Below are positions 6,403 to 26,692 of a stretch of 64,000 nucleotides of DNA, piece by piece. The position numbers and the translations under genes were made by a program. The notes under the pieces are model-generated. The model saw only the letters and a list, made by a program, of their open reading frames with translations. It had not been told where the DNA came from and made no database searches. How positions within the stretch are numbered: position 1 is the first letter of the stretch; every line of letters starts with the position of its first letter. The stretch lies in NCBI GenBank assembly GCA_030390025.1, contig CM059432.1, positions 76,882,001 through 76,946,000 of the forward strand, written 5' to 3'. The DNA comes from Squalus acanthias. Its lineage: Eukaryota.

Positions 6403-8186
6403 GGACTAGAAATTGGGCTACTGACCGTCACCCGTTTGCGCTGCTATCCTGGCAAAAAATAGCGACCTCCACTCTAGCGGCCTTCTCTGGCGTGGACTCA
6501 GTGGCTGCCATTTTGGTGAGGGCCTTAGCACTGCCGATAGCAGTGCTGGCCCTGGAGATATAAATGAAGAGAACATGATGTTAGTTGGCGTGCAACATCC
6601 CCTTATAAATAAAAATGATGTCAAAATATGCAGTTTTCAGCCCTTACAGTTCAACTACATTCTGAAAAGAAATTAACATTAAAAAGAATTCCCAAATGGG
6701 AGTCTTCAGCTCATAAAGCTGAATTCCCTTCTGCACCTAAAAAAATGGGAAAAGTGCTTTAGCACTAAAACAAATGGCTCAGTAAGCCAGGGAAGGGGCA
6801 CCCAGGGTCTCGCATGCAGCACTCCAGTTTTGTGCAGGGGGTCAACACTGTATGAGAGGTCCTCTACCCACAGAGGCCAGGAGGCTCTCTAGAAAGAAGG
6901 ATGTGGGGCCAGATCATCAAGGCTGTCACTGCCAGCAGTGTCACCCCCACCATCTGGCTCCAGCGCCCAAAGAAGCTTCATGACCTCAGACCATTGGTTC
7001 AGGTCAGTGAATGCATCTTCAAAGGCCGTCTCCAACCAACTGTACCACTAGGTGCATACATTTCTAAATGCACAACTCCCCGCCCCCACAATCACTCATC
7101 TACCAACAATCTGTACCAAACATAAGGCCCACCTCCCATTTCTAGCTTCACCTCACCCCCTTGGAGGAGATGGTGCTGGCCATTCTTGGCAGGGGCATGG
7201 CTGAGCCCTTGGCCAGCAGCGGGGCTGAAAGGATACAAGATGCTGCTATCCTCATACATTATCCTCCTTCTGGCATGCACCTCTTGCTTTCCCGCCCTCC
7301 CCTTACCACAACTCCACCATTGTGCGTTCCTCATTTCACACACTCAAGAAATGCAACCTGCCCAACCAGTGGGTGACCAAGAAGAGGGAGAGAAGAGAAG
7401 AAGAAGAAGAAGAAGAAGATGATAAGGTGTGGGACAAATGTTGAAAGCAGGCGGATGATTCCATCCCAGATATCCCGGCTAGAAAGGGGTTGTCTGGGTT
7501 GCATCTTTCCTTCTGCTTTCTCCTCCTCTGCATCTTCCTCTTCTGCGTCTTCCCCTTCCCTTGCGAGTGGATGCTGTAAATCTGAAATAAAAGCAGAAAG
7601 TGCTGGAAATACTCAACAGGTCAGGCAGCATCTCAACCTGAGACATGAACTCTGTTTCTCTCTCCACGGATGCTGCCTGACTTGCTGAGTTTATCCAGCA
7701 TTTTCTGTCTTCTCAGAGGCCTTCCTTTACCATCTGAGGCCTTGCAAGCATCCAGCAGCACTCCCTGCACACTTAAAAAACTTTTAACATGTTTTGCACC
7801 AAGCCGCTACTTCAATAAAATAAAAAAAAATCCATTCCAAAAGCTTAAATGCAAACTTACCTGAAAGATGTGTGTGTCCCTTTAAGAAGTACTGACAGCG
7901 CCTCTGTCCGTCTGCTGAACACTCGCTTTTCAATGCAAGCTCAGGACCCAGCAGCACTAAGGTAAAAGTTCGCAGACGTGACATCAAGTCCGCGTGTGAC
8001 GTCACCCTTTCTTAATTTACATCTCCAGGGCCAGCGCAGCTATCGGCAGCACTAAGGCCCTCACCAAGATGCCGGCCGCCGAGACCCGAGCCACAGAACC
8101 ACAGAAGGGCGCTAGAGTGGTGGCCGCCATTTGTAGACCGGATCACGGCGCAAACGGATGGTGGTAACTGGGCCAATTTCAAGGCC
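6403..8186 (+). mobile_element. Non-autonomous PIF/Harbinger derivative with decayed Myb/SANT exons
   Basis: TIRs ggactagaaattggg / gccaatttcaaggcc with longer subterminal inverted similarity; interior homologous to 11750-15251 (EEMVLAILG exon, acidic transposase tail on minus strand). Confidence 0.75.
7567..7710. mobile_element. Tiny fold-back Penelope pLTR insertion
   Basis: Two oppositely oriented pieces of the pLTR end (cagaaagtgctggaaatactcaacaggtcaggcagcatc / gatgctgcctgacttgctgagtttatccagcattttctg). Confidence 0.7.
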
Positions 8187-9363
8187 TTTGTCTTTAATAA
8201 TCCTGGCTTCCTCTTAGTGCCCTCTCTATCTCCTTACCTTTCCTTATATTTTCTATGTCCCTCATCGATTTCCTCACACAACATAATGCAATGGCCAGGA
8301 TCCCTAATGCTATCATCTGGGCTATCACCAGTCTCATCTGGAACAATTTAGCCCAAGGTGTAGCTCCACACTAGTGGCTTCTTCCCACCATTCATGATTC
8401 CCAAGTCTCGTGATTGCCTGTTTTATTTGTTTATTATCTTGCAACATATGCACAGTATGTTTTTGCAAAGTTCTTGTTCTGTAGATTATGGATTTAAAGC
8501 AGAGGGATAGAGGGGGTATATACTGTCCATTGTGTGAGATTGCTTGAATCATCTCATTCTCCAAAACCTCCTCACTTGATGTGGGTCATATAATGATGGT
8601 GTACCGGCACCAATGTTTTATCACCGATTTGTGTTTTTCCCAGCTTGAACCACACAGAATCAGTGTATGGGCCATCTTGTTAATCTAACAGTCATAAAAG
8701 CAGCTGTGGTGGTCACACAGTATCTTCCCTTGCCTTTGTAGGCTATATTAGTCCGTCCGTCTTCCCGGAGTCTTAGACTCATCTTACAATTGGGTGATTC
8801 CTCATCAATTATGAACCCGTAGGCTGGAGTGGTATGTTTTCGTACCACATCACACCTACAAACTCAAGTGGTGCCTTTTAGAGTGCAGCACTCTATGTCC
8901 TGTGCTATCCAAGTGCCGCCGTATTCTTTGTATTGTTTATACATCAGGCCTATTCCAGAGTCTTTACTCACTTCGATAGACTTTACTGGGTACACTTCCC
9001 AAGGTGGACTCCCATGCTTTGCTAACAAGATTAGTGCCAGTACCACCGGTATGAGTTCCTCATCCCCGCCCTCATTTTGGAGGGCCAAAAATGCCATTCC
9101 CATCTGGCGCATCATATTATAGTCTATACCTGTGGTTCCTTTGAACCATTTTCTCAGTTATTGTACATGAATAAACAAAGGTATTTAATTACCCTCTATG
9201 TTGTCCAGTCCCTTCTGTACCACATTCATCATAAATGTCGCATAGAGGCTACGCACGACACCTCTAGTAAGATCTTGATTCTGGTTAGCCTCATTGTTTG
9301 CCAATAATCTTTTAAATTGCCTCTTCATTACCTCATCGTGTTCCCACATACTTTCTATAACTA

Positions 9364-10810
9364 CTACAATAGCAAAATACTGCGGATGCTGGAAATCTGA
9401 AATAACAACAGAAAATGCTGGAAATACTCAGCAGGCCAGGCAGCATCCGTGGAGAGAGAAACAGAGTTAACGTTTCAGGTCTGGGACCCTTCATCAGAAC
9501 TGGAAAAAGCTGGAGATGTAACAGATATTAAGCAGGTGCAAAGACAGGGTGGGCGGGGGGGGGGGGGCGGTTTGGTCCATCTCCGACTCTTCCCTTCCCT
9601 TCCTTGACTTCTCCGTCTCCATTTCTGGTGATTGGCTTTCAACAAACATCCACTACAAGCCCACTGACTCCCACAGCTACCTGGACTACACTTCCTCCCA
9701 CCCCGCTTCCTGTAAGGACTCTATTCCATTCTCCCAGTTTCTCTGTCTCCGCCGCGTCTGTTCTGACGATGCCACCTTCCATACCAGTGCTTCCGACATG
9801 GCTTCCTTTTTCCTCAACCGAGGATTCCCCTCTACTGTGGTTGACACGGCCCTTGACCATGTCCGTTCCATTTCCCGCACTTCTGCTCTCACCCCTTCCC
9901 CTCCCTCCCAGAACCACGATAGGGTTCCCCTAGTCCTCACCTTTCACCCCACCAGCCTCCACATTCAACGGATCATCCTCCGCCATTTCCGCCACCTCCA
10001 ACGTGATCCCAGCACCAAACACATCTTCCCCTCACCTCCCCTTTCAGCTTTCCGAAGGGACCGCTCCCACCGCGACATCCTGGTCCACTCCTCAATCACC
10101 CCTAACAGCCCTTCTCCTTTGCCTGGCACCTTCCCATGCAAGCGCAGGAGATGCAACACATACCCTTTTACCTCCTCCCTTCCTACTGTCCAGGGCCCAA
10201 ACACCCCTTCCAGGTGAAACAGTGATTTACTTGTACTTCTTGCAATTTAATATACTGTATTCGCTGCTCACGATGTGGTCTCCTCTACATTGGGGAGACC
10301 GTTTTGCGGAACACCTCCGTTAAGTCCGGAAGGGTGACGCTGAGCTTCTGGTCGCCTGTCACTTTAATTCTCCACTTCACTCCCACTCTGATCTCTCTGT
10401 CCTCGGCCTATTACATTGTTCCAATGAAGCTCTGCGTAAGCTCGTTGAACAGCACCTCATCTTTCGATTAGGTACTTTACAGCCTTCCGGACTCAACATC
10501 GAGTTCAACAATTTCAGACAATAATCCCTGCCCCCATTTTTCATGCTGTATGATTTTGCCATTCCCATTTGCAACATTTTATCTATCCTGCCTCTTACAT
10601 AAGCACAGTATATTCTTTCAATTCCTTCCTCCCCTCCTAACCTCCCCCCACCACCCCCACCGTCTTTGCACCTGCTTAATATCTGTTACATCTCCAGCTT
10701 TTTCCAGTTCTGATGAAGGGTCCCAGACCTGAAACGTTAACTCTGTTTCTCTCTCCACGGATGCTGCCTGGCCTGCTGAGTATTTCCAGCATTTTCTGTT
10801 GTTATTTTAT
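9364..10810 (+). mobile_element. Penelope-like element, 5'-truncated, with inverted pLTR
   Basis: ORF 9549-10217 (LPFLD, YKPTDSHSYL), GIY-YIG remnant YCIRCSRCGLLYIGET; 9399-9545 is the reverse complement of 10662-10807; 12-bp duplication tttctataacta at 9352-9363 and 10811-10822. Confidence 0.92.
10702..10748 (+). ncRNA. Minimal type I hammerhead ribozyme motif in Penelope pLTR (mirror copy on minus strand ~9460-9505)
   Basis: agtt-CTGATGA(10710-10716)-stem II ggtc/gacc-GAAA(10731-10734)-CGTT-aact; agtt/aact forms stem I. Confidence 0.7.
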
Positions 10811-12010
10811 TTTCTATAACTATTCTGTTTACTCCTGCCACACGTGACATCTGATCCAAGCCATTCTCGGGCTTTCAGGTGATCTTATCAAAAGATCGTG
10901 GGCTGTCTGGAGATCTTGCTCATCTCCCCCTGCATGGTCCTGATCTTACGGTTAGTGGCCAAGCTATCAAATGCATTTTTCTTATTGTTCAGTATAGGCA
11001 ATGCCACAAACATCTCCAAAAGAAAGCTTATCAGTTTACTATTCTTAACTATACTTCCATGACTTTCACAAGAATGTACATTAATACCAGATTGTACCAG
11101 GTGATTTATGCCAATTCACCTAAGAAAAATGATATTAGATAAATTCGCATTTGGTGGTGTAATTTCTTCAGAGTATAACGCAGTTTACAAGCAGAGTTTT
11201 GTCAGCAGTTCTGAGTGTAGGCATGCACTCAAAAAGGTTTATCTCTTTTTTCTCTTAACTTACCACAAAAGCTTCTTTTTTATACACTATTTCCTTTATC
11301 AAACTGGAAGTGGCCTTACTTTATTTAGTAGTCTCCGGTCAATGCATTGTCCTTCAGCCAATTTTTACACACACAAGTTTACATTTCTCGTACATCAACA
11401 TCCCCTTGCGTTGGTTTCAATAGTGTATGGTGGGATATTTGTAGTGTGGCAATACTATAAACATCCCAAGGCCTTACTGCAATCTTGAACACTGGCTGAT
11501 GTTAAGTGAAATCTGTACGTCTCTCTCTCTCTCTCTCTTTTTCTCTCACCAATGATGCCAATCACCTTTTTTGCTCTATATTGAATGAACTAAACCTGAA
11601 CACCTTTCAGAAGCCAAATTAACTGAGTTCCATATGCCAACACCTTGTACACAAAACACAGAAAGTTAACATGTAGGTACAGCAAGCAATTAGGAAGGAA
11701 AACAGTACATTGCCCTTTATTGCAAGGGGGTTGAAGTACAAGAGTAAGGGGCATAGAAATTGGTTTCCCTCCAAAAACAGGCACGGGGATCACGATACGC
11801 TAACAACTTGCGCCCGTTCCGAGGACTGCAGGCAGCACGCGAACTTTGTGCTGCCTGCTCATTTTCATGATTGTGGTATCAGCCCAGTGCTAAACACGCT
11901 GCTAAGTGGCTGAACGCTCAACAGAGGCCCAGGTTCATGCGAGTCTAGCACCAATTAAAGCTAGCCTGCACCTGTTAAAGTGGAGGTGCATTCTGCCTGC
12001 AGCAGAATAG

Positions 12011-13940: not shown

Positions 13941-16499
13941 ATCCTCCTTCTCTCATCCCACTTCCCCCTCATCCCACAATCTCTTCTGATTTATAAGCTG
14001 CACATGGTGTAAGCATCCGCCTCTTGCTTTTCCACCCTCCCCCCCACCACAACCCTACCCTTGTGCCTTCCTCATTTCAGACACCAAAGAAATCCAGCCT
14101 GCACAGGCAGTGGGTCAACGGGAAGAGGGAGAGGAGAGTGAAGAAGAAGAAGAAGAAGAAGAAACACCGTCACTCGATTTCACACTCCCAGCCACCAGCT
14201 CCTTGAGGTTGTCCTGCAAGGCCATCTGCAGTGTCCCCCACTGCAAGTCAGCAGCCTTCCACCAGCCATGCTGCAGCCACTGGGGTAGCATTACACAACA
14301 TCACCAGGATAGGCAAAGGCACACACAAGACACTCACTAAGGGAATGCACAAGGGTGATTAGTTGATTTCTTGATATAATATTGGATGCATATATGGATA
14401 AAGTTGAATTGGAAGGTTTGCTTTGTGGTGGCTTTTATTTCAGTGTTGTGGTCAAGAGGATGCTGTGATGGTCAGTAACAGAGGGAAGGTATGATGTGGG
14501 ACAAATGTTGAAAGAGGTTCACTGGTACCGCAGGCGGATGATTCGATCCTGGATATCCCAGCCAGAAAGGGGCTGTCTGGGTTGCCTCCTTCCTTCTGCT
14601 TCCTCCTCTTCTGCTTCTTCCCATTCTGTTTCTTCCTCTTTTGCTTCTTCCTCTTGCCTCTGCGAGCAGCTTGTCCCCTTTGCTGCCTCTGCTTCATCTC
14701 CATGTGATCTTGCAGTGCAAGGGGGACAAATAGAGCCCCCAGGACTCTGAGCAAGTGGTCTTCTCAGAGGTCTTCCTTTAACATCCAAAGCCTTGCAAAC
14801 ATCCAGCAGCACTTCCTGCACTCCCTGCACACATTCACAACTTCTTAATGGTATTGCACTGAGCTACTACTCTAATAAATTGTAAAAAAACTCCAAATGC
14901 TGAAATTGAAACTTACCTGAAAGATGTACGTGTCCCTTTAAGAAGCGCTGACAGTGTCTCTGTACAACTGCTGCACACATGTTCTTCCGTGCGTTGTTAG
15001 GAGAGGGCGATATGGAGTGCGGCAACGTCCAAAATCGCAGTCGTGTGTCAATTCAGGCGTTGCACACCGATTGACGTCACGATCTGCATATTTACTTGGG
15101 AGAGGCGAATGCAGGCAACGACAGCGCTACCGACCTCTCCAAAATGGCGGCCGCAATGTTCTGCGCGGGAAGTGGGCAGAAGCGAGGTGGCTGCCATTTT
15201 TTTAACAAAACCGGCCTTAACGCCGGCACAACAACCCCAAATTTCACGGCCATAGAGAGTAAAATGAAACAGAAAAAAAGAGGCATATGATAAATGTCAG
15301 TTTCATAATTCAGTAGAGAACCAAGCTGAGTACAGAAAGTACAGAGAATGTCTGAAAAAAGGGAATAAGAGGGGCAAAGAAAGAGTATGAGAATAGATTA
15401 GCGGCTAACATAAAAGGGAAATCAAAAATCTTTTATGAACATATAAATAGTAAAAGGGTAGTCAAAGGAAGGGTGGGGAAAATTAGGGACCAAAAAGGAA
15501 ATCTTCCTTTGGAGGCAGAGGGTATGGCAGAGATACTAAATAAGTACTTTGCATCTCTCTTCACTAGAGAAGAGGATGCAGCAGTAAAGGAGGAGGCAGC
15601 AGCAATATTTGATAGGATAAAAATGGATAAAGAGGAGGTACCTAAAAGGTTGGCAGTACTCAAAGTAGAAAAGTCACCCAGTCCGGACGGGATGAGAACA
15701 TAAGAATGTAAAAAATAGGAGCAGGGGTAGACCATACAGCCCCTCGAGCCTGCTCCACAATTCAAATAGATCATGGCTGATCTTCAACCTCTAATCCACT
15801 TTCCTGCCCAATCCCCACATTTCTTGATTCTCTTAGAGTCCAAAAATCTATTTATCTCAGCCTTGAATATACTCAACGACTGAGCATCTACAACCCTCTG
15901 GGGCAGAGAATTCCAAAGATTCACAACCCTCTGAGTGAAGAGATTTCTCCTCATCTCAGTCCTAAATAGCCGACCCCTTATCCTGACACTATGCCCCCTA
16001 GTTCTAGACTCTCCAGCCAGGGGAAACAACCTCCCAGCATTTACCCTGTCAAGCCCTCTCAGAATCTAATATGTGTCATTGAGATCACCTCTCATTCTTC
16101 TAAACTCCAGAGAGTATAGGCCCATTCTACTCAATCTCTCCTCATAGGACAACCCTCTCAACCCAGGAATCAATCTAGAGAACCTTTATTGCACCTGTCT
16201 AAGGCAAGTATATCCTTCCTCAGATAAGGAGACCAAAACTGGGCACAGTACTCCAGGTGTGGTCTCACCAAAGCCCTGTACAATTGTAGCAAGACTTCCT
16301 TACTCTTGTACTCCAACCCCCTTGCAATAAGAAAGAAAGATTTATAGAGCGCTTTTCACAACCACCGGATGTCTCAAAGTGCTTTACAGCCAATGAAGTG
16401 CTTTTGAAGTGTAGTCACTGTTGTAATGTTGGAAACATGGCAGCCAATTTGCGCACAGCAAGCTCCCACAAACAGCAATGTGATAATGACCAGATAATC

Positions 16500-19400
16500 T
16501 GTGGTAACACAATACAGCTTCCTGTGACTCGAACTTTATTGCATCACTTCCTGTGATTAGTCCAGGATAAATACTGGACTGATCAGTTGGATCCTGGAGA
16601 GGCATAGAGTAAGACCTCTTTTGTATGTAGCACCTTTTTAGTTGATTAAAGCTTACTTTAAGTTCACCACGCGTAAGGCTCATTCTTATGACAATTTAAT
16701 CAACTTTGGAAAACTTCGCACTCAAACTTTTTGGACGAACTCGGAACTAAGGATTCAGGGAATCACCCATCATGGAAACATCCTTAAACCATCGCGTCTT
16801 GACTTGGACCCAAACACCCCAGCAGCCGGTAAGGTGTGGAAACACTGGTATCACACGTTTGACAATTTCCTTGAATATTGCAAGGCTGATGATGACTCAA
16901 AGTTGCGGATACTCATCAACTGTGTCACCCCGAATGTATTTCAGTATGTGGAGGAATGGGACAGTTACGAGGAGGCAATTCGGACGCTTAAGAGACTATA
17001 TACTAAGACACCGAATGAGGTCTATGCCAGACATCTACTAGCTACAGCCCAACAAGGGCCGGAGGAATCCATTGATAAATTCCTCCAAGAGCTTCGCAGA
17101 CTTAGTATGGACTGTAACTTTCAGGCGGCCTCAGCTGAGCTGTACCGTGAAGAAATGATCCGTGATGCTTTCATCTGCGGGCTTGCCTCCCCATTTATAC
17201 GCCAGCGTCTACTGGAAAGTAAGACACTTGAGCTTCAGAGAGCTTATGACATGGCTTGCTCTCTAGATCTGGCAAAAAGAAATACAGACCTTTATACAGT
17301 GCCCAGACCTCGGTCTACTGCCTTAACTACAGTCAGGCAATTTAAGAGGCCACAGGTGAACTCTATTAGGGAGGTCTTTATCCCTGACGATCAATCTGAT
17401 GACTTCACTGATGAAGAGGATGATGACCCCACTGTGGCAGTCTCTTGGCAATCTAAGAAATGCTTCTTTTGTGGTGATGAGTTTCACCCTCGGAAATTCT
17501 GCCCTGCTCGCAATGCGTTTTGCAGTCATTGCAACAAAAAAGGTCATTTTGCAAAGGTTTGCCTATCAAGAGCCTCTACGAGGGCTTATCAAGCTAAGTC
17601 CTACCGAACTGCCCCGGTAAGGGCTTATCAAGATGTTCCGGCTAACATCTATCGTGCTTCCTCTCGGGTTTCCTCTCGAAGAAACACACCTAGAGTTTCA
17701 GCCACTCTTTGTGCAACGACACCAATTACAGCTGCTTGTCCTCAGAACCTATTCCATGCAGCTACAAAAGCATCAATTAATGGACATACTTTAGATGCCT
17801 TAATTGACTCAGGTAGCACTGATAGTTTCATTAGGGAACAGATTGTTGCAGAGTTAAAGCTACATGTTTTCCCATCGGACCAGGCAGTTGCGATGGCTCA
17901 GTCATCACTTAATACCAGAATTTCTGGCTTTTGTATGGTTGAATAACACTTAATGGTCACAGGTATCCCTCCACCCGGCTTTCGGTGCTCAAGGACTTAT
18001 GTAGTGATCTTATCTTAGGGCTGGATTTTCAAAAGCAGCATAAGAAGCTCACCATTGAGTTCGGCGGATCCAAACCTGAACTCACTATTTCTAATATACT
18101 ACCTCGATTACCGTTCTGTGCATTGTCAGCAGCTTCACTGGATGAACCCTCACTGTTTACCAGTCTCCCTCCTCGATGCAAACCGATTATAACAAAGTCA
18201 CGACGTTTCAGTCAGGAAGACCAGTCTTTTATTGCGGCTGAGATTTCTCGGCTTTTAGCAGAGGATATCATCGAGCCTTGTTCGTCGCCATGGCGCGCCC
18301 AGGTCGTTATTGTTAAGAACCCTCTACAACCTCACAAGAAACGGCTGTGCATTGACTATTCACAGACCATCAATCAATATACGGACTTGGACGCATACCC
18401 ATTGCCGCGCATCGATGATATGGTTAATAAACTGGCTGAGTACACGGTGTTCTCAACATATGATCTGAAAAGTGCTTATCATCAGGTACCCTTGAAGGTC
18501 TCAGACAAGCAGTATACGGCCTTTGAAGCCAATGGACGGCTGTATCAATTTCGTCGCCTCCCCTTTGGGGTCACTAATGGAGTGGCTGTCTTCCAGCGAG
18601 CAATGGATGACCTGGTCAAACAGGAAGACTTGAAGGATACGTTTCCTTATCTGGACAATATTACTGTCGCAGGTCGCAATCAGCGGGAACATGACGCCAA
18701 TCTCCAACGATTTTGGGATGCACTCCAGCACCGTAATTTGACATTAAATGCGGCTAAATCCATTGAGTCACAACCAACCATCAACATCCTTGGCTATTGT
18801 GTGGGCAATGGCATCATTAAACCTGACCCTGAAAGGCTTCGCCCACTCCAAGAACTCCCGCCACCTAAGAATCCGGCCTCCTTGCACCGGGCCCTCGGCC
18901 TGTTTGCATACTATGCTAAATGGATTCCTAACTTCTCGGACCGAATCCAACCTCTACTGAAGGCCAGCACATTCCCACTAGACACAACGGCTGTTGCAGC
19001 CTTTAACCTCCTGAAAAAACAGTTGGAGAAAGCGGCTCTTCACTCCATCGATGAGAGTCTTCCTTTTGTTGTTGAGTGTGATGCCTCGGAGGTGGCGATC
19101 TCGGCCACTCTGAATCAGGAAGGTCGTCCGGTGGCATTTTTGTCCAGGACTTTTCAAGGGGCTGAGCTACATTATCCTCCAGTCGAGAAAGAAGCTACAG
19201 CCATCATAGAGGCAGTACGGAAGTGGAGTCATCTCCTAGCTCGCCAGCACTTTACCTTAATCACGGACCAGCGATCGGTCGCCTTCATGCTCGATAATCG
19301 AAAACGGACCAAAATTAAAAATAATAAAATCCAGCTTTGGCGGCTGGAATTGGCCTCTTTTGGTTACACCATCCACTATCGACCTGGCAAGGAGAATGTG

Positions 19401-20938
19401 GCTCCGGATACCCTCACATGAGCATTCTGCTCCGCCATGGCACCCTCTACGCTCGTAGACATCCATGATGGGTTGTGTCATCCGGGCGTTACTCGCATGC
19501 TACACTTCGTGCGGTCCCGAAATCTCCCATTCTCTACCGAGGATATAAAGAAGATGTGCTCGGACTGCAGAGTCTGTGCGGAATTGAAACCTCAGTTTTT
19601 CCGCCCCTCGGGTGGTATACTCATACATGCGACCCAGCCAATGCAACGGCTTAGCATCGATTTTAAGGGGCCGTTGCCCTCTTCAACTCGCAACACTTAT
19701 CTGTTGACCATGGTCGATGAGTATTCCCGTTTTCCGTTTGCCTTTCCCTGCCCCAATATGCTGACGACCACGGTTATCAGCTGCCTTGAGCAGGTATTTG
19801 CTTTCTGTGGCATGGCATCCTATGTTCATTCGGATCGGGGCCCTTCTTTTATGTCAGGAGAACTCAAGGCCTATCTCTCGGAACGGGGTATTGCTGCCAG
19901 CAGAACGACGCCTTATCATCCGGTCGGGAATGGGCAAGTCGAGCGTTTTAACGCTATCATCTGGAATGCGGTACGTCTGGCTTTGAGATCTCGGGGCCTA
20001 CCCAACCAGCAATGGGAAGCAGTACTTCCAGACGCATTACACTCCACACGGTCCCTCCTTTCGACCGCCACAAATACGACGCCTCATGAACGGTTCTTCC
20101 GATTTCAGCGTCGCTCATCCTATGGGATATCTCTCCCATCGTGGCTGAATACACCGGGACCAGTGCTACTCCGAAGATATGTCCGGGCGTCTAAGAATGA
20201 CCCCCTGGTAGATGAGGTTGAGCTCACTGACGTCAACCCTACCTACGCCTATATTCGGTATCCTGACGGTCGGGAATCTACCGTGTCATTGCGGGATCTG
20301 GCTCCCTGCCCGCCGAAACATAGAGGGACACCAGGGGATGATATTGTACCAGGCACATCTCTGGGCTCGCCAGGTGCCTCTCATCACGATCTGGATCTGA
20401 CGCCGGCTGGTACCTCACTCCAGCGTGCCGACCTGGGGCAGACTGACTATGAGCCCGTCGGGGCTCGCACGCGCAGCCACGATCCACCCCGTACCGTACG
20501 CTCAGAAACGGATCTGCCACAGCCCTGCCCGACAGCCGTTCGGGCACCAGTACACAGTCAGGATCGTCCTGACCCCTCACAGAGCGGGCTGGATCACTCG
20601 GACTCTGGTCCACGGCCCGCGGCAGGTAAACGGGCTAGGGGCCCTCTACCGCTACGAGAACCCAAACGGGTGCGGCTCTCCCTCGTCCAGCGGCTACGAA
20701 ATGGAGGGAGCATCCCGGCCTCCTAATCTTTTGGGGGGGTAGAATGTGGTAACACAATACAGCTTCCTGTGACTCGAACTTTATTGCATCACTTCCTGTG
20801 ATTAGTCCAGGATAAATACTGGACTGATCAGTTGGATCCTGGCGAGGCATAGAGTAAGACCTCTTTTGTATGTAGCACCTTTTTAGTTGATTAAAGCTTA
20901 CTTTAAGTTCACCACGCGTAAGGCTCATTCTTACAACA
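16500..20938 (+). mobile_element. Near-intact Ty3/Gypsy LTR retrotransposon (Mag-like)
   Basis: 194-bp LTRs 16500-16693 and 20745-20938 (TG...CA, 3 mismatches); 5-bp TSD TAATC; PPT gggggggtagaa; order gag-PR-RT-RH-IN. Confidence 0.97.
16772..20726 (+). pseudogene. gag-pol: gag-pol polyprotein with about three lesions
   Basis: Two zinc knuckles CFFCGDEFHPRKFCPARNAFCSHCNKKGHFAKVC, protease ALIDSGS, RT YLDN, RNase H VECDAS, integrase HHCC and SIDFKG/HSDRG/GQVER; frameshifts ~16778 and ~17943, TGA at 19419. Confidence 0.92.
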
Positions 20939-21441
20939 TAATCTGTTTAGTGATGTTGATTGAGGGATAAATATTGTCCAGGACACTGGGGATAACTCCC
21001 CTGCTCTACTTCTGTCATAGGATCTTTTACGTCCACCTGAGTGGGCAGACGGTTTAACATCTCATCCGAAAGACGGCACCTCTGACAGTGCAGTGCTCCC
21101 TCATTATTGCACTGGAATGTCAGCCTAGATTTTTGTGCTCAAGTCTCTGGAGTGGGACTCGAACCCACAGCCTTCTGACTCATATGTTAATAAAGGCCAA
21201 CATACCATTTGCCTTCCTAATTGCTGGCTGTACCTGCATGTTAACTTTCTGTGTTTCGAGTACAAGGACACCCAAATCCCTCTGAACACCAACAGTTAAT
21301 AGTTTCACGCCATTTAAAAAATATTCTGTTTTTCTATTCTTCCTACCAAAATGAATAACCCCAAATTTCCCCACATTATACACCATCTGCAACCTTCTTG
21401 CCCACCAACATAACCTGTCTATATCCCTTTGCAGACTCTTT

Positions 21442-23954: not shown

Positions 23955-26692
23955 ATCGTTTCAGCCTGTTCTTGCCCCACGGAACTGATTTCCTCCTGTC
24001 TCGACTCTATTTATTCTCCCCTTGTCCAGTCTCTTCCCACCTACATTCGCGACTCATCCGACGCCCTCCGCCACTTTAACAGTTTCCAGTTTCCTGGCCC
24101 CAACCATCTCCTTTTCACTATGGACGTCTAAACCCTCTACACCTCCATCCCCCACCAGGACGGCCTGAGGGCGCTCCGCTTCTTCCTTGAACTGAGGCCC
24201 AGCAGTCCCCTTGCACTACCGTCCTCCTCCACCTGGCTGAACTTGTTCTCACATTGAACAACTTCTCCTTTGATTCCACTTACTTCCTCCAAATTAAGGG
24301 CGTTGCTATGGAAACCCGCATGGGTCCGAGCTATGCCTGCCTTTTCGTGGGATATGTGGAATATTCTTTGTTCCAGTCCTACTTGGGTCCCCTCCCTCAC
24401 CTCTTTTTCCGGTACATTGATGACTGTATCAGTGCCGTTTCCTGCTCTCGCCCTGAACTAGAAAATTTCATTCACTTTGCTTCCAATTTCTACCTTTCCC
24501 TCACCTTCACATGGTCCATCTCTGACTCTTCCCTTCCCTTCCTCTAAATCTCTATCTCCATTTCTGGGGATAGGCTATCGACGAACATCCACTATAAGCC
24601 CACTGACTCCCACAGCTACCTGGACTACACTTCCTCTCACCCCGCTTCCTGTAAGGACTCTATTCCATTCTCCCAGTTTCTCCGTCTCCGCTGCATCTGT
24701 TCTGACGATGCCACCTTCCATACTAGTGCTTCCGATATGTCTTCCTTTTTTCTCAACCGAAGATTCCTCTCTACCATGGTTGACACGGCCCTCGACCGTG
24801 TCCGTTCCATTTCCCGCACTTCTACTCTCACCCCTTCCCCTCCCTCCTAGAACCACGATAGGGTTCCCCTTGTCCTCACCTTTCACCCCACCAACCTCCA
24901 CATTCAACAGATCATCCTCCGCCATTTCCCCCACCTCCAACGTGACCGCACCACCAAACACATCTTCCCCTCCCCTCCCCTTTCAACATTCCAAAGGGAC
25001 CACTCCGTCCACGACACCCTGGTCCACTCCTCAATCAACACCAACAGCCCCTCCCCTCCCCACAGCACCTTCTCGTGCAAGCGCAGGAAATGCAACACCT
25101 GCCCTTTTATCTCCTCCCTTCCCACTGTCCAGGGCCCCAAACACTCCTTCCAGGTGAAACAGCAATTTACTTGTACTTCTTGCAATTTAGTATACTGTAT
25201 TCGCTGCTCACGATGTGGTCTCCTCTACATTGGGGAGACCAAACGCAGATTGGGCGACCATTTGCAGAACACCTCTGTTCAGTCCGTAAGGGGGACCCCG
25301 AGCTTCCGGTCGCCTGTCACTTTAATTCTCCGCTCCACTCCCACTCTGACCTCTCTGTCCTCGGCCCCTTACACTGTTCCAATGAAGCTCAACATAAGCT
25401 CGAGGAACAGTACCTCATCTTTCGATTAGGAATCGAGTTCAACAATTTCAGACCATAACCTCTGCCCCTATTTTTTCAGGAGGCAGCTGTTGATGATTCT
25501 GCCATTCCCCATTTGCAACATTTAACCACTCATGCCTTCCATCTATTACAGACTGTCCCTTTTGTTCTTTCCACCCCTCCCCCACTTTCCCTGCCCCTGC
25601 ACCTGGTTAAAATCTGTTACATCTCTAATTTTTTCTAGTTCTAATGAAGGGTCACAGACCTAAAACATTGGGCTCGATTTTCCCAGCCCCGAGGAGGCGG
25701 GTTTGTAGGCGTGCGAGTTGTTAAACTCGCCAAAACTGGCGGGCGGGCTCGTTCCCGCCTCCATCCCACCTCCGAACAATTTTCCCAAGTGCGTGTTTTC
25801 TGACCCGCTTTCCATCCCACCTCCAAGAGGCGGAATAGGCCCTTAAGGCCCTTAACAACCACTTAATTGCCTCTATAATCCCATTTTGAGAGGCCTTTCC
25901 GGTTTTAGCACATTTCCCCCATCCTACATGCCTCCTCTGGAACACGCCAGGTAATCCTGGCGGCCTCACTAGTGGATTGCTTACGAACAGCTGCAGCTCC
26001 ACCATTACAAAGGAGTTTTCACCGATGATCATTTGCAGGTGGCAGAACTTTGTTGTTTCAGGTCTGGGGGAACTTTTAGCAGGCATACTCAGTGTTGTGG
26101 AAGTTTGGAGCCTGACACCCATCTCCAGTGTGACCTCCTTGGAAACCCCTCTCCCTACCTTGACTAAGCGCTTCCTCAACTGAGGCATATACCAGAAGCA
26201 TGGCGACCATTTAATTCCTTTCCTCCTGGACATCAGATTCGGATGAAGACCAGCTGCGGCAGCAGCAGAACCATGAGCAACAGCTGCACCAACAGCAGGA
26301 ACATCAACAGGAGCGCCAAGCTGCTAGTCACCCACCTGAAGATGCACAGGCCAGAAGGCGCCAGAGCACCACCATATTGCTGCCCGGGATGCAAGGGACG
26401 CACTCATGTTGGTCACATTTGCTTAGCCTGCACAATCAAACAGTTTAGCCTCGCACCTTCTTACCAGAGCATCGACAATGGACAAGAACCTACGGATTCC
26501 TCTCACTCTGACCACCACACTGACAATTGCAAGTCGCCCTAAGCCCTCAATGTGGAAGTCCCATTAGCGAAATGACACATGCCACAACTGCAACAGTTTG
26601 CCATCAGAATTTTTTATGACAATAAGCAACTGATGGCTTCTCAAAATTAAACACATTACACCCAAGTGACAACCCTTGTGACTACTTGTGCA

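Follow-up and report, generated by a model that had tools for sequence, protein, structure and literature searches.

The 64,000-nt stretch of the genome of the shark Squalus acanthias analyzed here (the window; assembly GCA_030390025.1, contig CM059432.1, positions 76,882,001 to 76,946,000) very probably carries a decayed, twice-deleted copy of a many-copy long terminal repeat (LTR) element of the form LTR-gag-env-B-env-A-LTR, in which pol is almost wholly missing. Its two envelope genes likely once encoded class I fusion proteins of the type of the paramyxovirus and pneumovirus fusion protein (F), and pol-bearing relatives with the same LTR probably assisted in copying the element. The gene content of the window copy amounts to about 395 codons of one envelope gene (env-A) and about 110 codons of another (env-B), instead of the approximately 440 codons of a single gene proposed in an earlier note on this DNA.

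The larger remnant, env-A (8194 to 9363, minus strand), corresponds to the transmembrane (TM), F1-like subunit, with a shortened first heptad repeat (HR1), cysteine-rich beta domains, a second heptad repeat (HR2), a tryptophan-rich region, a TM helix, and a tail. The small minus-strand frames in the earlier note exist (stop to stop, 8864-9157, 8660-8863, and 8334-8585) and, together with a few codons beyond an insertion, they form this remnant. They are interrupted by stops at 9187, 9160, 8866, and 8662 and by frame shifts near 8642, 8579, 8570, and 8357; in-frame gaps of about 120 nt near 9300, 21 nt near 8923, and 6 nt near 8667 are also present, and HR1 is short by about 40 codons. With four stops, four shifts, and a missing start, the window copy should make no protein today. 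The pieces are nevertheless collinear with intact Env proteins: a profile of three such proteins gave 181 bits for 9364-8645 and 72 bits for 8564-8361, with only 4.3 bits for 8355-8194 (reversed-frame controls for the three Env profiles reached at most 3.3 bits). HR2, the tryptophan-rich region, the TM helix, and the tail align with those of the intact relatives P0002 and P0003. In the Env tree, the window piece is sister to a frame of the C10 copy from the same genome (100/97), inside a shark Env clade (100/99) and far from the Envs of lokiretroviruses (Loki). The translation of 9364-8663 (P0001, with X at three stops) had no match in Pfam or the PDB; it also had none among database proteins of 411 to 2,000 aa, which is weak evidence.

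Between the two parts of env-A lies a later insertion, a fragment of a Penelope-like retroelement (9364 to 10822, plus strand; 1,459 nt) with 167-nt inverted arms, flanked by the 12-bp target duplication TAGTTATAGAAA; here the earlier note was right. Its frame 10226-10471, for which a Pfam search gave no match, is almost identical to part of another frame of the window (24851-25429), which resembles GIY-YIG below the Pfam cut-off (E = 8.7e-4). On the far side, positions 10811 to 10838 (minus strand) hold the end of the fusion peptide and the start of HR1 of env-A, 93 to 97% alike to sister copies over 31 nt and including one copy of the 12-bp duplication.

The 5′ end of the element is marked by an LTR (11157 to 11642, minus strand), which starts with TGTTGG and is 75 to 88% alike to the LTRs of other copies. 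The earlier note had reported that gag and pol were not visible, which is correct for this copy, but it missed this truncated LTR, of which the first 486 or so of about 580 to 600 nt remain. The U5 end is missing, and the primer-binding site, gag, and the rest were lost at a first deletion junction (11157 to 11165, minus strand), where the LTR is joined to the env-B piece through an imperfect microhomology of about 9 to 12 nt. About 4.6 kb is missing there relative to the C7 copy (flanks compared in four LTRs and nine internal segments). Splicing was ruled out as the origin of this junction, since the LTR side has no GT donor and microhomology is present. A second junction (10833 to 10838, minus strand; 5 to 6 nt of microhomology) lacks 1.2 kb compared with the shortest sisters. 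Gone with it are the end of env-B and, from env-A, the F2-like segment, the furin site, and most of the fusion peptide; the earlier note had likewise seen neither furin site nor fusion peptide. Family similarity ends at 8186 to 8194 (minus strand) without a 3′ LTR; a whole sister LTR, searched against the window, matched only 11642-11166. A contig from run X5 (organism B) covers this end (7861-8214): from the host flank it reaches 28 nt into the element, against a required 31, which hints weakly at an insertion in common.

The segment between the two junctions (10833 to 11165, minus strand) is assigned to env-B, a second, upstream F-like env, of which it covers the beta-rich part of the TM subunit according to a profile of five frog-type Envs. 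The earlier note had placed its first 47 or so codons (NAFDSL...ENGLDQMSRV, 10978-10839) at the N terminus of env-A as HR1, and this part of the joined gene did not hold: the codons have no significant match to P0002 or P0003, and in nine of nine sister copies checked at both junctions the equivalent of 11165-10833 ends 1.2 to 2.1 kb upstream of the AGVNR codons and fusion peptide and lies kilobases from the LTR. They are therefore not part of env-A and fall to the other env. Eight of the nine sisters matched the frog-type profile over the env-B piece (33.1, 27.9, 18.7, 16.9, 15.7, 10.8, 7.5, and 5.4 bits; reversed control, 4.7), with further collinear matches downstream of it. A blastx comparison of env-B with P0009 gave an E value of 4.8e-7, and hhalign scored env-B of the C1b copy at 66% (E = 5.5e-5). 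The piece had at least 150 matches in the shark's own genome (150 of 2,445 candidates scored), among which no intact env-B was found, the longest open frames having fewer than 270 codons.

The family is abundant. In the 3.7 Gb of the genome searched, env-A (P0001) had at least 153 matches at E ≤ 0.001 (150 of 5,902 candidates scored). The upstream env-B piece was present in 11 of 20 mapped neighborhoods, none of which had native pol within 20 kb (L056/L057 matches only 62 nt of the piece); seven of the nine neighborhoods without it carried the reverse transcriptase (RT) or integrase (IN) of this lineage. Loci picked for env-B gave the same picture, with env-A downstream in seven of eight and no pol match, and the order env-B then env-A was seen at no fewer than 17 loci, in two spacing classes. 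In the pol-less copies, env-A begins at the F2-like segment (about residue 190) and lacks the N-terminal head and part of HR1, and a CR1-like fragment occupies the former position of pol; a scrap of integrase rose above the control in 2 of 10 (26.0 and 11.9 bits versus 5.8). The RT and IN beside the C12 sister were rejected as native pol, being a gypsy-type insertion. Sister LTRs measure about 580 to 600 nt, run from TG to CA, and end in ACAACA, followed by TGG; the primer-binding site after the 5′ LTR (L049, 98-80, minus strand) seems to resemble the 3′ end of a tRNA-Arg. Target duplications of 5 bp surround the C7 and C174 copies. Taken with the LTRs and with gag, protease (PR), RT, tether, RNase H (RH), and IN in the relatives, these duplications support the identity of the window gene as a retroviral env. 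Over the LTR and the start of gag, pol-less and pol-bearing (C10/C174) copies are 82 to 93% alike, versus only 64 to 69% over env. The C1b copy (L054/L055, C1:199.88 Mb) is a mosaic: its 5′ part resembles the pol-less family, and the env and LTR at its 3′ end match those of the pol-bearing C174 copy at 85%.

Many of the lesions in env-A recur in sister copies. The gap of about 120 nt in HR1 is common to eight of eight sisters, the shift near 8642 to seven, and the stops at 8866 and 8662 to six each; because they are shared, the family spread after env-A died. The gaps common to all eight in the env-A frame are themselves in frame (120, 12, and 9 nt). Changes private to single env-A copies fall evenly on the three codon positions (103/101/111; P = 0.77), and a pairwise dN/dS of 0.48 inside the subfamily was for this reason not accepted as selection. 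Between the subfamily and the pol-bearing copies, differences rise at third positions (0.28/0.22/0.53; dN of 0.28 versus dS of about 1.8), so env-A once coded under purifying selection. No third-position excess separates the two spacing classes (env-B, 0.24/0.27/0.28; env-A, 0.14/0.15/0.11). Shared lesions, flat private changes, and absence of selection in either env indicate that the family multiplied as a defective passenger. Divergence within LTR pairs (0.074, 0.089, and 0.097) corresponds to about 17 to 22 million years at a mammalian rate or 170 to 220 million years at the tenfold slower rate assumed for sharks in PMC4422223.

The relatives of env-A that have open frames lie behind gag and PR-RT-tether-RH-IN, between LTRs. 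A genome search of the kind proposed in the earlier note recovered them with LTR, gag, and pol adjacent: the C4 copy has a 784-codon open Env frame (P0002) behind RT, RNase H, and integrase frames. In L022 (2620-4971), a 784-codon Env frame is open while the pol of the provirus is broken into several frames and the flanking direct repeat is 90% identical; the frame has possibly been kept by selection. P0002, P0003, and P0004 share a basic cleavage site (RKRR/RRKR), a hydrophobic fusion peptide, and an NRID/ESMWEHDE block common with the window. Intact Envs of the relatives measure about 750 to 780 aa, include an extra N-terminal head of about 190 residues, and separate the fusion peptide from the TM helix by about 400 residues. 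They lack the gamma-type layout (short TM ectodomain, immunosuppressive domain, and CX6CC), and TLV_coat was not matched in the env frames of relatives at E ≤ 1 in Pfam. The three-protein profile reached 52 database proteins at E ≤ 0.001; 10 of these were looked up and 8 were named, six being from frogs (Pelodytes, Xenopus, Mantella twice, Bombina, and Discoglossus), one from a skate, and one from a shark. The nearest named proteins come from Scyliorhinus torazame and Chiloscyllium punctatum.

Several methods point to an F-like fold in these relatives. Pfam Fusion_gly (PF00523) was matched weakly in four of five env frames of relatives from the same genome (E = 0.007 to 0.036; 12.8 to 15.1 bits, cut-off 29.8) and in none of 28 database Env proteins at E ≤ 0.05, and the ESM Atlas matched Fusion_gly clusters at 0.92 to 0.93. 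The structure model, built for P0003 rather than for the window copy (46 sequences; predicted local distance difference test, 62.7; predicted TM-score, 0.41), matched in Foldseek the F proteins of human metapneumovirus (7.8e-9), human parainfluenza virus 3 (3.5e-8), and respiratory syncytial virus (RSV; 4.4e-8); foamy virus Env was not among the Foldseek PDB matches listed. In BFVD, the model matched walleye retrovirus Envs, paramyxovirus F, baculovirus F, and foamy virus Env. VIA-align superposed it on RSV F (Z = 10.1; root mean square deviation, 5.5; 283 aligned) and on foamy virus Env (Z = 7.8; 6.8; 250 aligned). The best PDB sequence match of the 46-sequence Env profile was foamy virus Env (E = 5.5e-4), and a three-sequence profile had none. 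Against retroviral Envs, the profile of the shark/frog family gave 78 and 72 bits for Loki, 42 for Envs like that of walleye dermal sarcoma virus (WDSV), 33.5 for snakehead retrovirus (SnRV), and at most 22 for foamy viruses, with shuffles at or below 5.1 (3.0 for SnRV); hhalign aligned the SnRV Env with the family at 93% (E = 3.1e-7; 280 columns). The Env of the intact relatives is thus predicted to be a class I fusion protein of the F type, as the earlier note had proposed for the window gene, and it would form trimers, be cleaved, and fuse membranes.

Some further observations concern this Env family. Among the best fold matches are Envs of walleye retroviruses and the glycoprotein of a fish filovirus (Q9WHI8, A4GTG3, A0A2P1GML9), which therefore also look F-like. 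The N-terminal head has an immunoglobulin (Ig)-like look (P0003, 70-195; P0007, 25-96), with Atlas Ig clusters at 0.84, a lead only, and V-set at E = 0.045 in P0007; by eye, a similar Ig-like pattern can be made out where the SnRV Env starts (L065, 6131-6500). P0003 and P0004, intact Envs of catshark and bamboo shark, are 86% identical, and the nearest copies in the S. acanthias genome (at most 83%) are all broken or partial; the pair is a candidate for co-option or for an old shared insertion. Family Env fragments also sit within database gene models of cadherin-domain and F-box proteins (P0039, P0048), probably through annotation joins. Another F-like env (L104, 5817-8668, minus strand) is closest to Mustelus and Rhinoraja proteins, and its RT falls beside SnRV without support. 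A young endogenous retrovirus (ERV; L101, 1830-8346; L102, 1825-8335) has many near-identical pol frames of 1,185 to 1,187 codons; the F-like core finds no match in its env of 490 to 513 codons, and its RT lies in another part of the tree.

The lineage was placed through the RTs of env-linked relatives, whose env is 39 to 52% identical in protein. Reference genomes were taken by short motifs (L065, with the SnRV RT printed in PMC7947760; L067-L069, Loki type; L070-L085, foamy; L086-L088, walleye-virus-like), L067-L069 being named Loki by motif and by a by-eye match to rows of the alignment in PMC7947760; the Env of L068 matched Fusion_gly at E = 0.0022. The three RT trees used 27, 27, or 21 of 120 listed RT matches, thinned for near-duplicates, and 7, 7, or 3 of 16 foamy records. 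In all of them the shark RTs fell within the canonical retroviral clade (100/99, 99/99, and 100/99), with Loki sister to that clade and foamy RTs in a separate 100/100 clade that excludes the shark RTs. In the mixture-model tree, they joined Xenopus and Latimeria sequences in a seven-row group (91/83) that sat basally among the canonical retroviruses; its position as the first branch had weak support (88/82). Dual RNase H (RT_RNaseH plus RNase_H) was found in the C1, C4, and C6 copies. Some lokiretroviruses have an smc-like gene; the C1 gag frame had only weak coiled-coil matches in Pfam. The IN tree gave the lineage no resolved position; the best IN reference was that of Loki (229 bits), a group whose IN is characterized by grouping with CGIN1. 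Searches of viral contigs gave no match for the RT query or for the first Loki pattern. The trees place the env-linked RT outside Loki, in a grade at the base of the canonical retroviruses that lies near SnRV and is also represented in frogs and coelacanth.

The earlier note had suggested a Loki-like env or another F-like endogenous viral element, with a possible extension of the known Loki range to sharks. A true lokiretrovirus env is now very improbable. In its favor, Loki Envs are the best reference for the Env profile, IN, RH, and tether also score best with Loki, and RNase H is dual, although the last does not discriminate, since other retroviruses share it (PMC7947760). The RT tells otherwise: forcing the shark RTs with Loki was rejected by the approximately unbiased (AU) test (P = 0.0018 for RT; P = 0.015 for RT plus tether), and the shark lineage has the RT motif LPQGFH, as SnRV does, where Loki rows have PFG-x-NSP. 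All 57 env proteins tested (P0003 included) scored higher against P0003 than against a Loki Env, and none of them is of the Loki type. In the Env tree, a long separate branch holds the Loki Envs. The Loki RT pattern was not found in the S. acanthias genome, the best Loki RT match being 43% among the 150 of 14,148 candidates that were scored. Both S. torazame and C. punctatum, which have this Env, were covered by the screen of Wang and Han, and the available part of their report marks no Loki for either (PMC7947760); the same part reports Loki absent from the cartilaginous fish screened, with three screened and none found in the Orectolobiformes row. The Loki range is therefore not extended to sharks, because the RT, which defines the group, falls elsewhere; "Loki-like" holds for similarity of Env, IN, RH, and tether and not for membership. 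A likelier alternative is that the lineage belongs to the SnRV clade proper, like lineage I of the elephant shark ERVs (CmiERV), with an SnRV-type Env. We rate this somewhat below even; it is compatible with the preferred reading and differs from it in label only. SnRV is the best RT reference for the env-linked C1 and C25 copies (216 and 174 bits, 43 to 47%; Loki, 186 to 188 at best for C1 and 144 for C25), the AU test does not reject the grouping (P = 0.385), the SnRV Env is homologous, and SnRV-related ERVs occur in the elephant shark (PMC4422223). Against it, no tree unites the shark RTs with SnRV with support. With one of the IN probes, no retroviral reference scored lower than SnRV (106 bits), whose IN clusters with that of foamy viruses, perhaps as a long-branch effect.

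An F gene of a paramyxovirus or pneumovirus, endogenized by a retroelement, would explain why the best fold matches are F proteins and the named Atlas matches Fusion_gly clusters. We regard this origin as scarcely credible: identity to F is 8 to 14%, sequence profiles reach retroviral Envs, the copies stand in the env position between pol and LTR, and the LTRs, target duplications, and pol of the relatives contradict an RNA virus gene without proviral context. It is also very unlikely that the family kept two working envs dividing attachment and fusion, as in paramyxoviruses. The recurrent tandem order in two spacing classes, the in-frame nature of the shared env-A gaps, and an env-A without N-terminal head and part of HR1 would suit such a division, but neither env shows third-position excess between the classes and no intact env-B was seen among the scored matches.

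The reading we prefer, a defective two-env element copied with the help of pol-bearing relatives, has points that weigh against it. The window subfamily has no RT of its own and is placed by linkage only, and env swapping is common (10.1101/2021.11.23.469661). The RT trees include only three Loki-type RTs and mammalian-type foamy viruses, without foamy-like ERVs of fish or amphibians, and Loki is the better reference for Env (78 versus 42 bits), tether (90 versus 57), RH (66 versus 48), and IN (229 versus 153). The fold comes from P0003 rather than from the window, and its TM-scores are low (0.26 to 0.27). For env-B, the piece in the window itself gives a weak signal (4.5 bits; hhalign, 14%, E = 0.0019), and duplication may account for some of the near-identical copies that lie on unplaced contigs.

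On this preferred reading, the intact Env would be cut at its R-K/R-R site into a head (the extra N-terminal domain and the F2-like strand) and an F1-like TM part, after which insertion of the fusion peptide and zippering of HR1 and HR2 would fuse the membranes, by analogy with F. A recombinant would have joined the env-B of one virus to the 3′ three quarters of the env-A of another, with loss of pol. Env-A, earlier under purifying selection, was already broken by the time of spread, and both envs have decayed neutrally since. Spread would have occurred by complementation in trans, a published copying mechanism for defective ERVs (PMC10435555), and the shared LTR and gag start and the C1b mosaic would be expected from co-packaging with pol-bearing partners. 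The window copy then lost 4.6 kb and 1.2 kb at microhomologies and gained the Penelope-like insertion, and it has no 3′ LTR.

F-like Envs have been published for lokiretroviruses (PMC7947760) and foamy viruses (PMC11468914). Because no relative of the Loki F-like Env could be detected in canonical retroviruses, Wang and Han did not decide between four scenarios of how Env originated (PMC7947760). The shark/frog profile reaches Loki, WDSV-like, SnRV, and foamy Envs well above shuffles, and its carriers have canonical RTs, which favors an F-like envelope type ancestral to retroviruses. More tentatively, and with confidence somewhat below even, the shark, frog, and coelacanth lineage may be the earliest canonical retroviral branch, with a Loki-like Env, IN, RH, and tether kept and a canonical RT; the common ancestor would then have had an F-type env, gamma- and beta-type Envs would be later replacements or reductions, and the two-env recombinant would sit at well over 100 loci. 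Class III RTs dominate in cartilaginous fish (PMC11089739), and Epsilon Envs have been described as neither gamma nor beta type (10.1101/2021.11.23.469661). Surveys of anamniote and shark Envs used gamma- or beta-type or syncytin probes (10.1101/2021.11.23.469661; 10.64898/2026.05.06.723177) and would for that reason miss this abundant family. The literature searched, which missed several relevant papers, contained no description of the two-env tandem form or of F-like Envs carried by cartilaginous-fish ERVs of the SnRV grade; the CmiERV sequences of PMC4422223 may contain this Env. The window copy itself is dead, and its interest lies only in marking the family and the pol-less form with two envs.

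Elsewhere in the window, a Ty3/gypsy element (16384 to 20946, plus strand) carries three frames, for gag-PR (434 codons), RT-RH (492), and IN (434), and has the same sequence at its two ends (16384-16695 and 20635-20946). The element (16642-20726) was set aside as unrelated to the env, being on the opposite strand and an outgroup in the tree.

Compared with known systems, the relatives show the LTR-gag-pol-env-LTR layout with furin site, fusion peptide, coiled coil, and TM, and the window copy is without gag, pol, furin site, and 3′ LTR. Lokiretroviruses resemble them in an F-like Env with these same features and in dual RNase H, and are the best reference for Env, IN, RH, and tether, whereas the shark-lineage RT lies outside their clade and in the Loki-type Env of L068 the core directly follows the signal peptide, without the head of about 190 residues. 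SnRV and CmiERV lineage I offer the closest RT reference, a homologous Env core, a basal class III-like position, and occurrence in a cartilaginous fish (PMC4422223), but they form no supported clade with the shark lineage, IN and tether differ, and the SnRV Env is longer (about 1,130 aa). Foamy virus Env shares the F-like fusion core and is the best PDB sequence match (PDB 8rm0/8rm1; PMC11468914), although foamy RTs stand in their own clade and the Env has about 990 aa. With paramyxovirus and pneumovirus F (PF00523), the predicted fold and the order of F2-like strand, cleavage site, fusion peptide, HR1, cysteine-rich beta domains, HR2, and TM are shared; identity is low, and here the gene is encoded in an LTR provirus. 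Finally, like other defective ERVs copied in trans, the family shows lesions shared across loci and an LTR in common with pol-bearing partners, and it differs from them in that a CR1-like fragment replaces pol and two env remnants stand in tandem.

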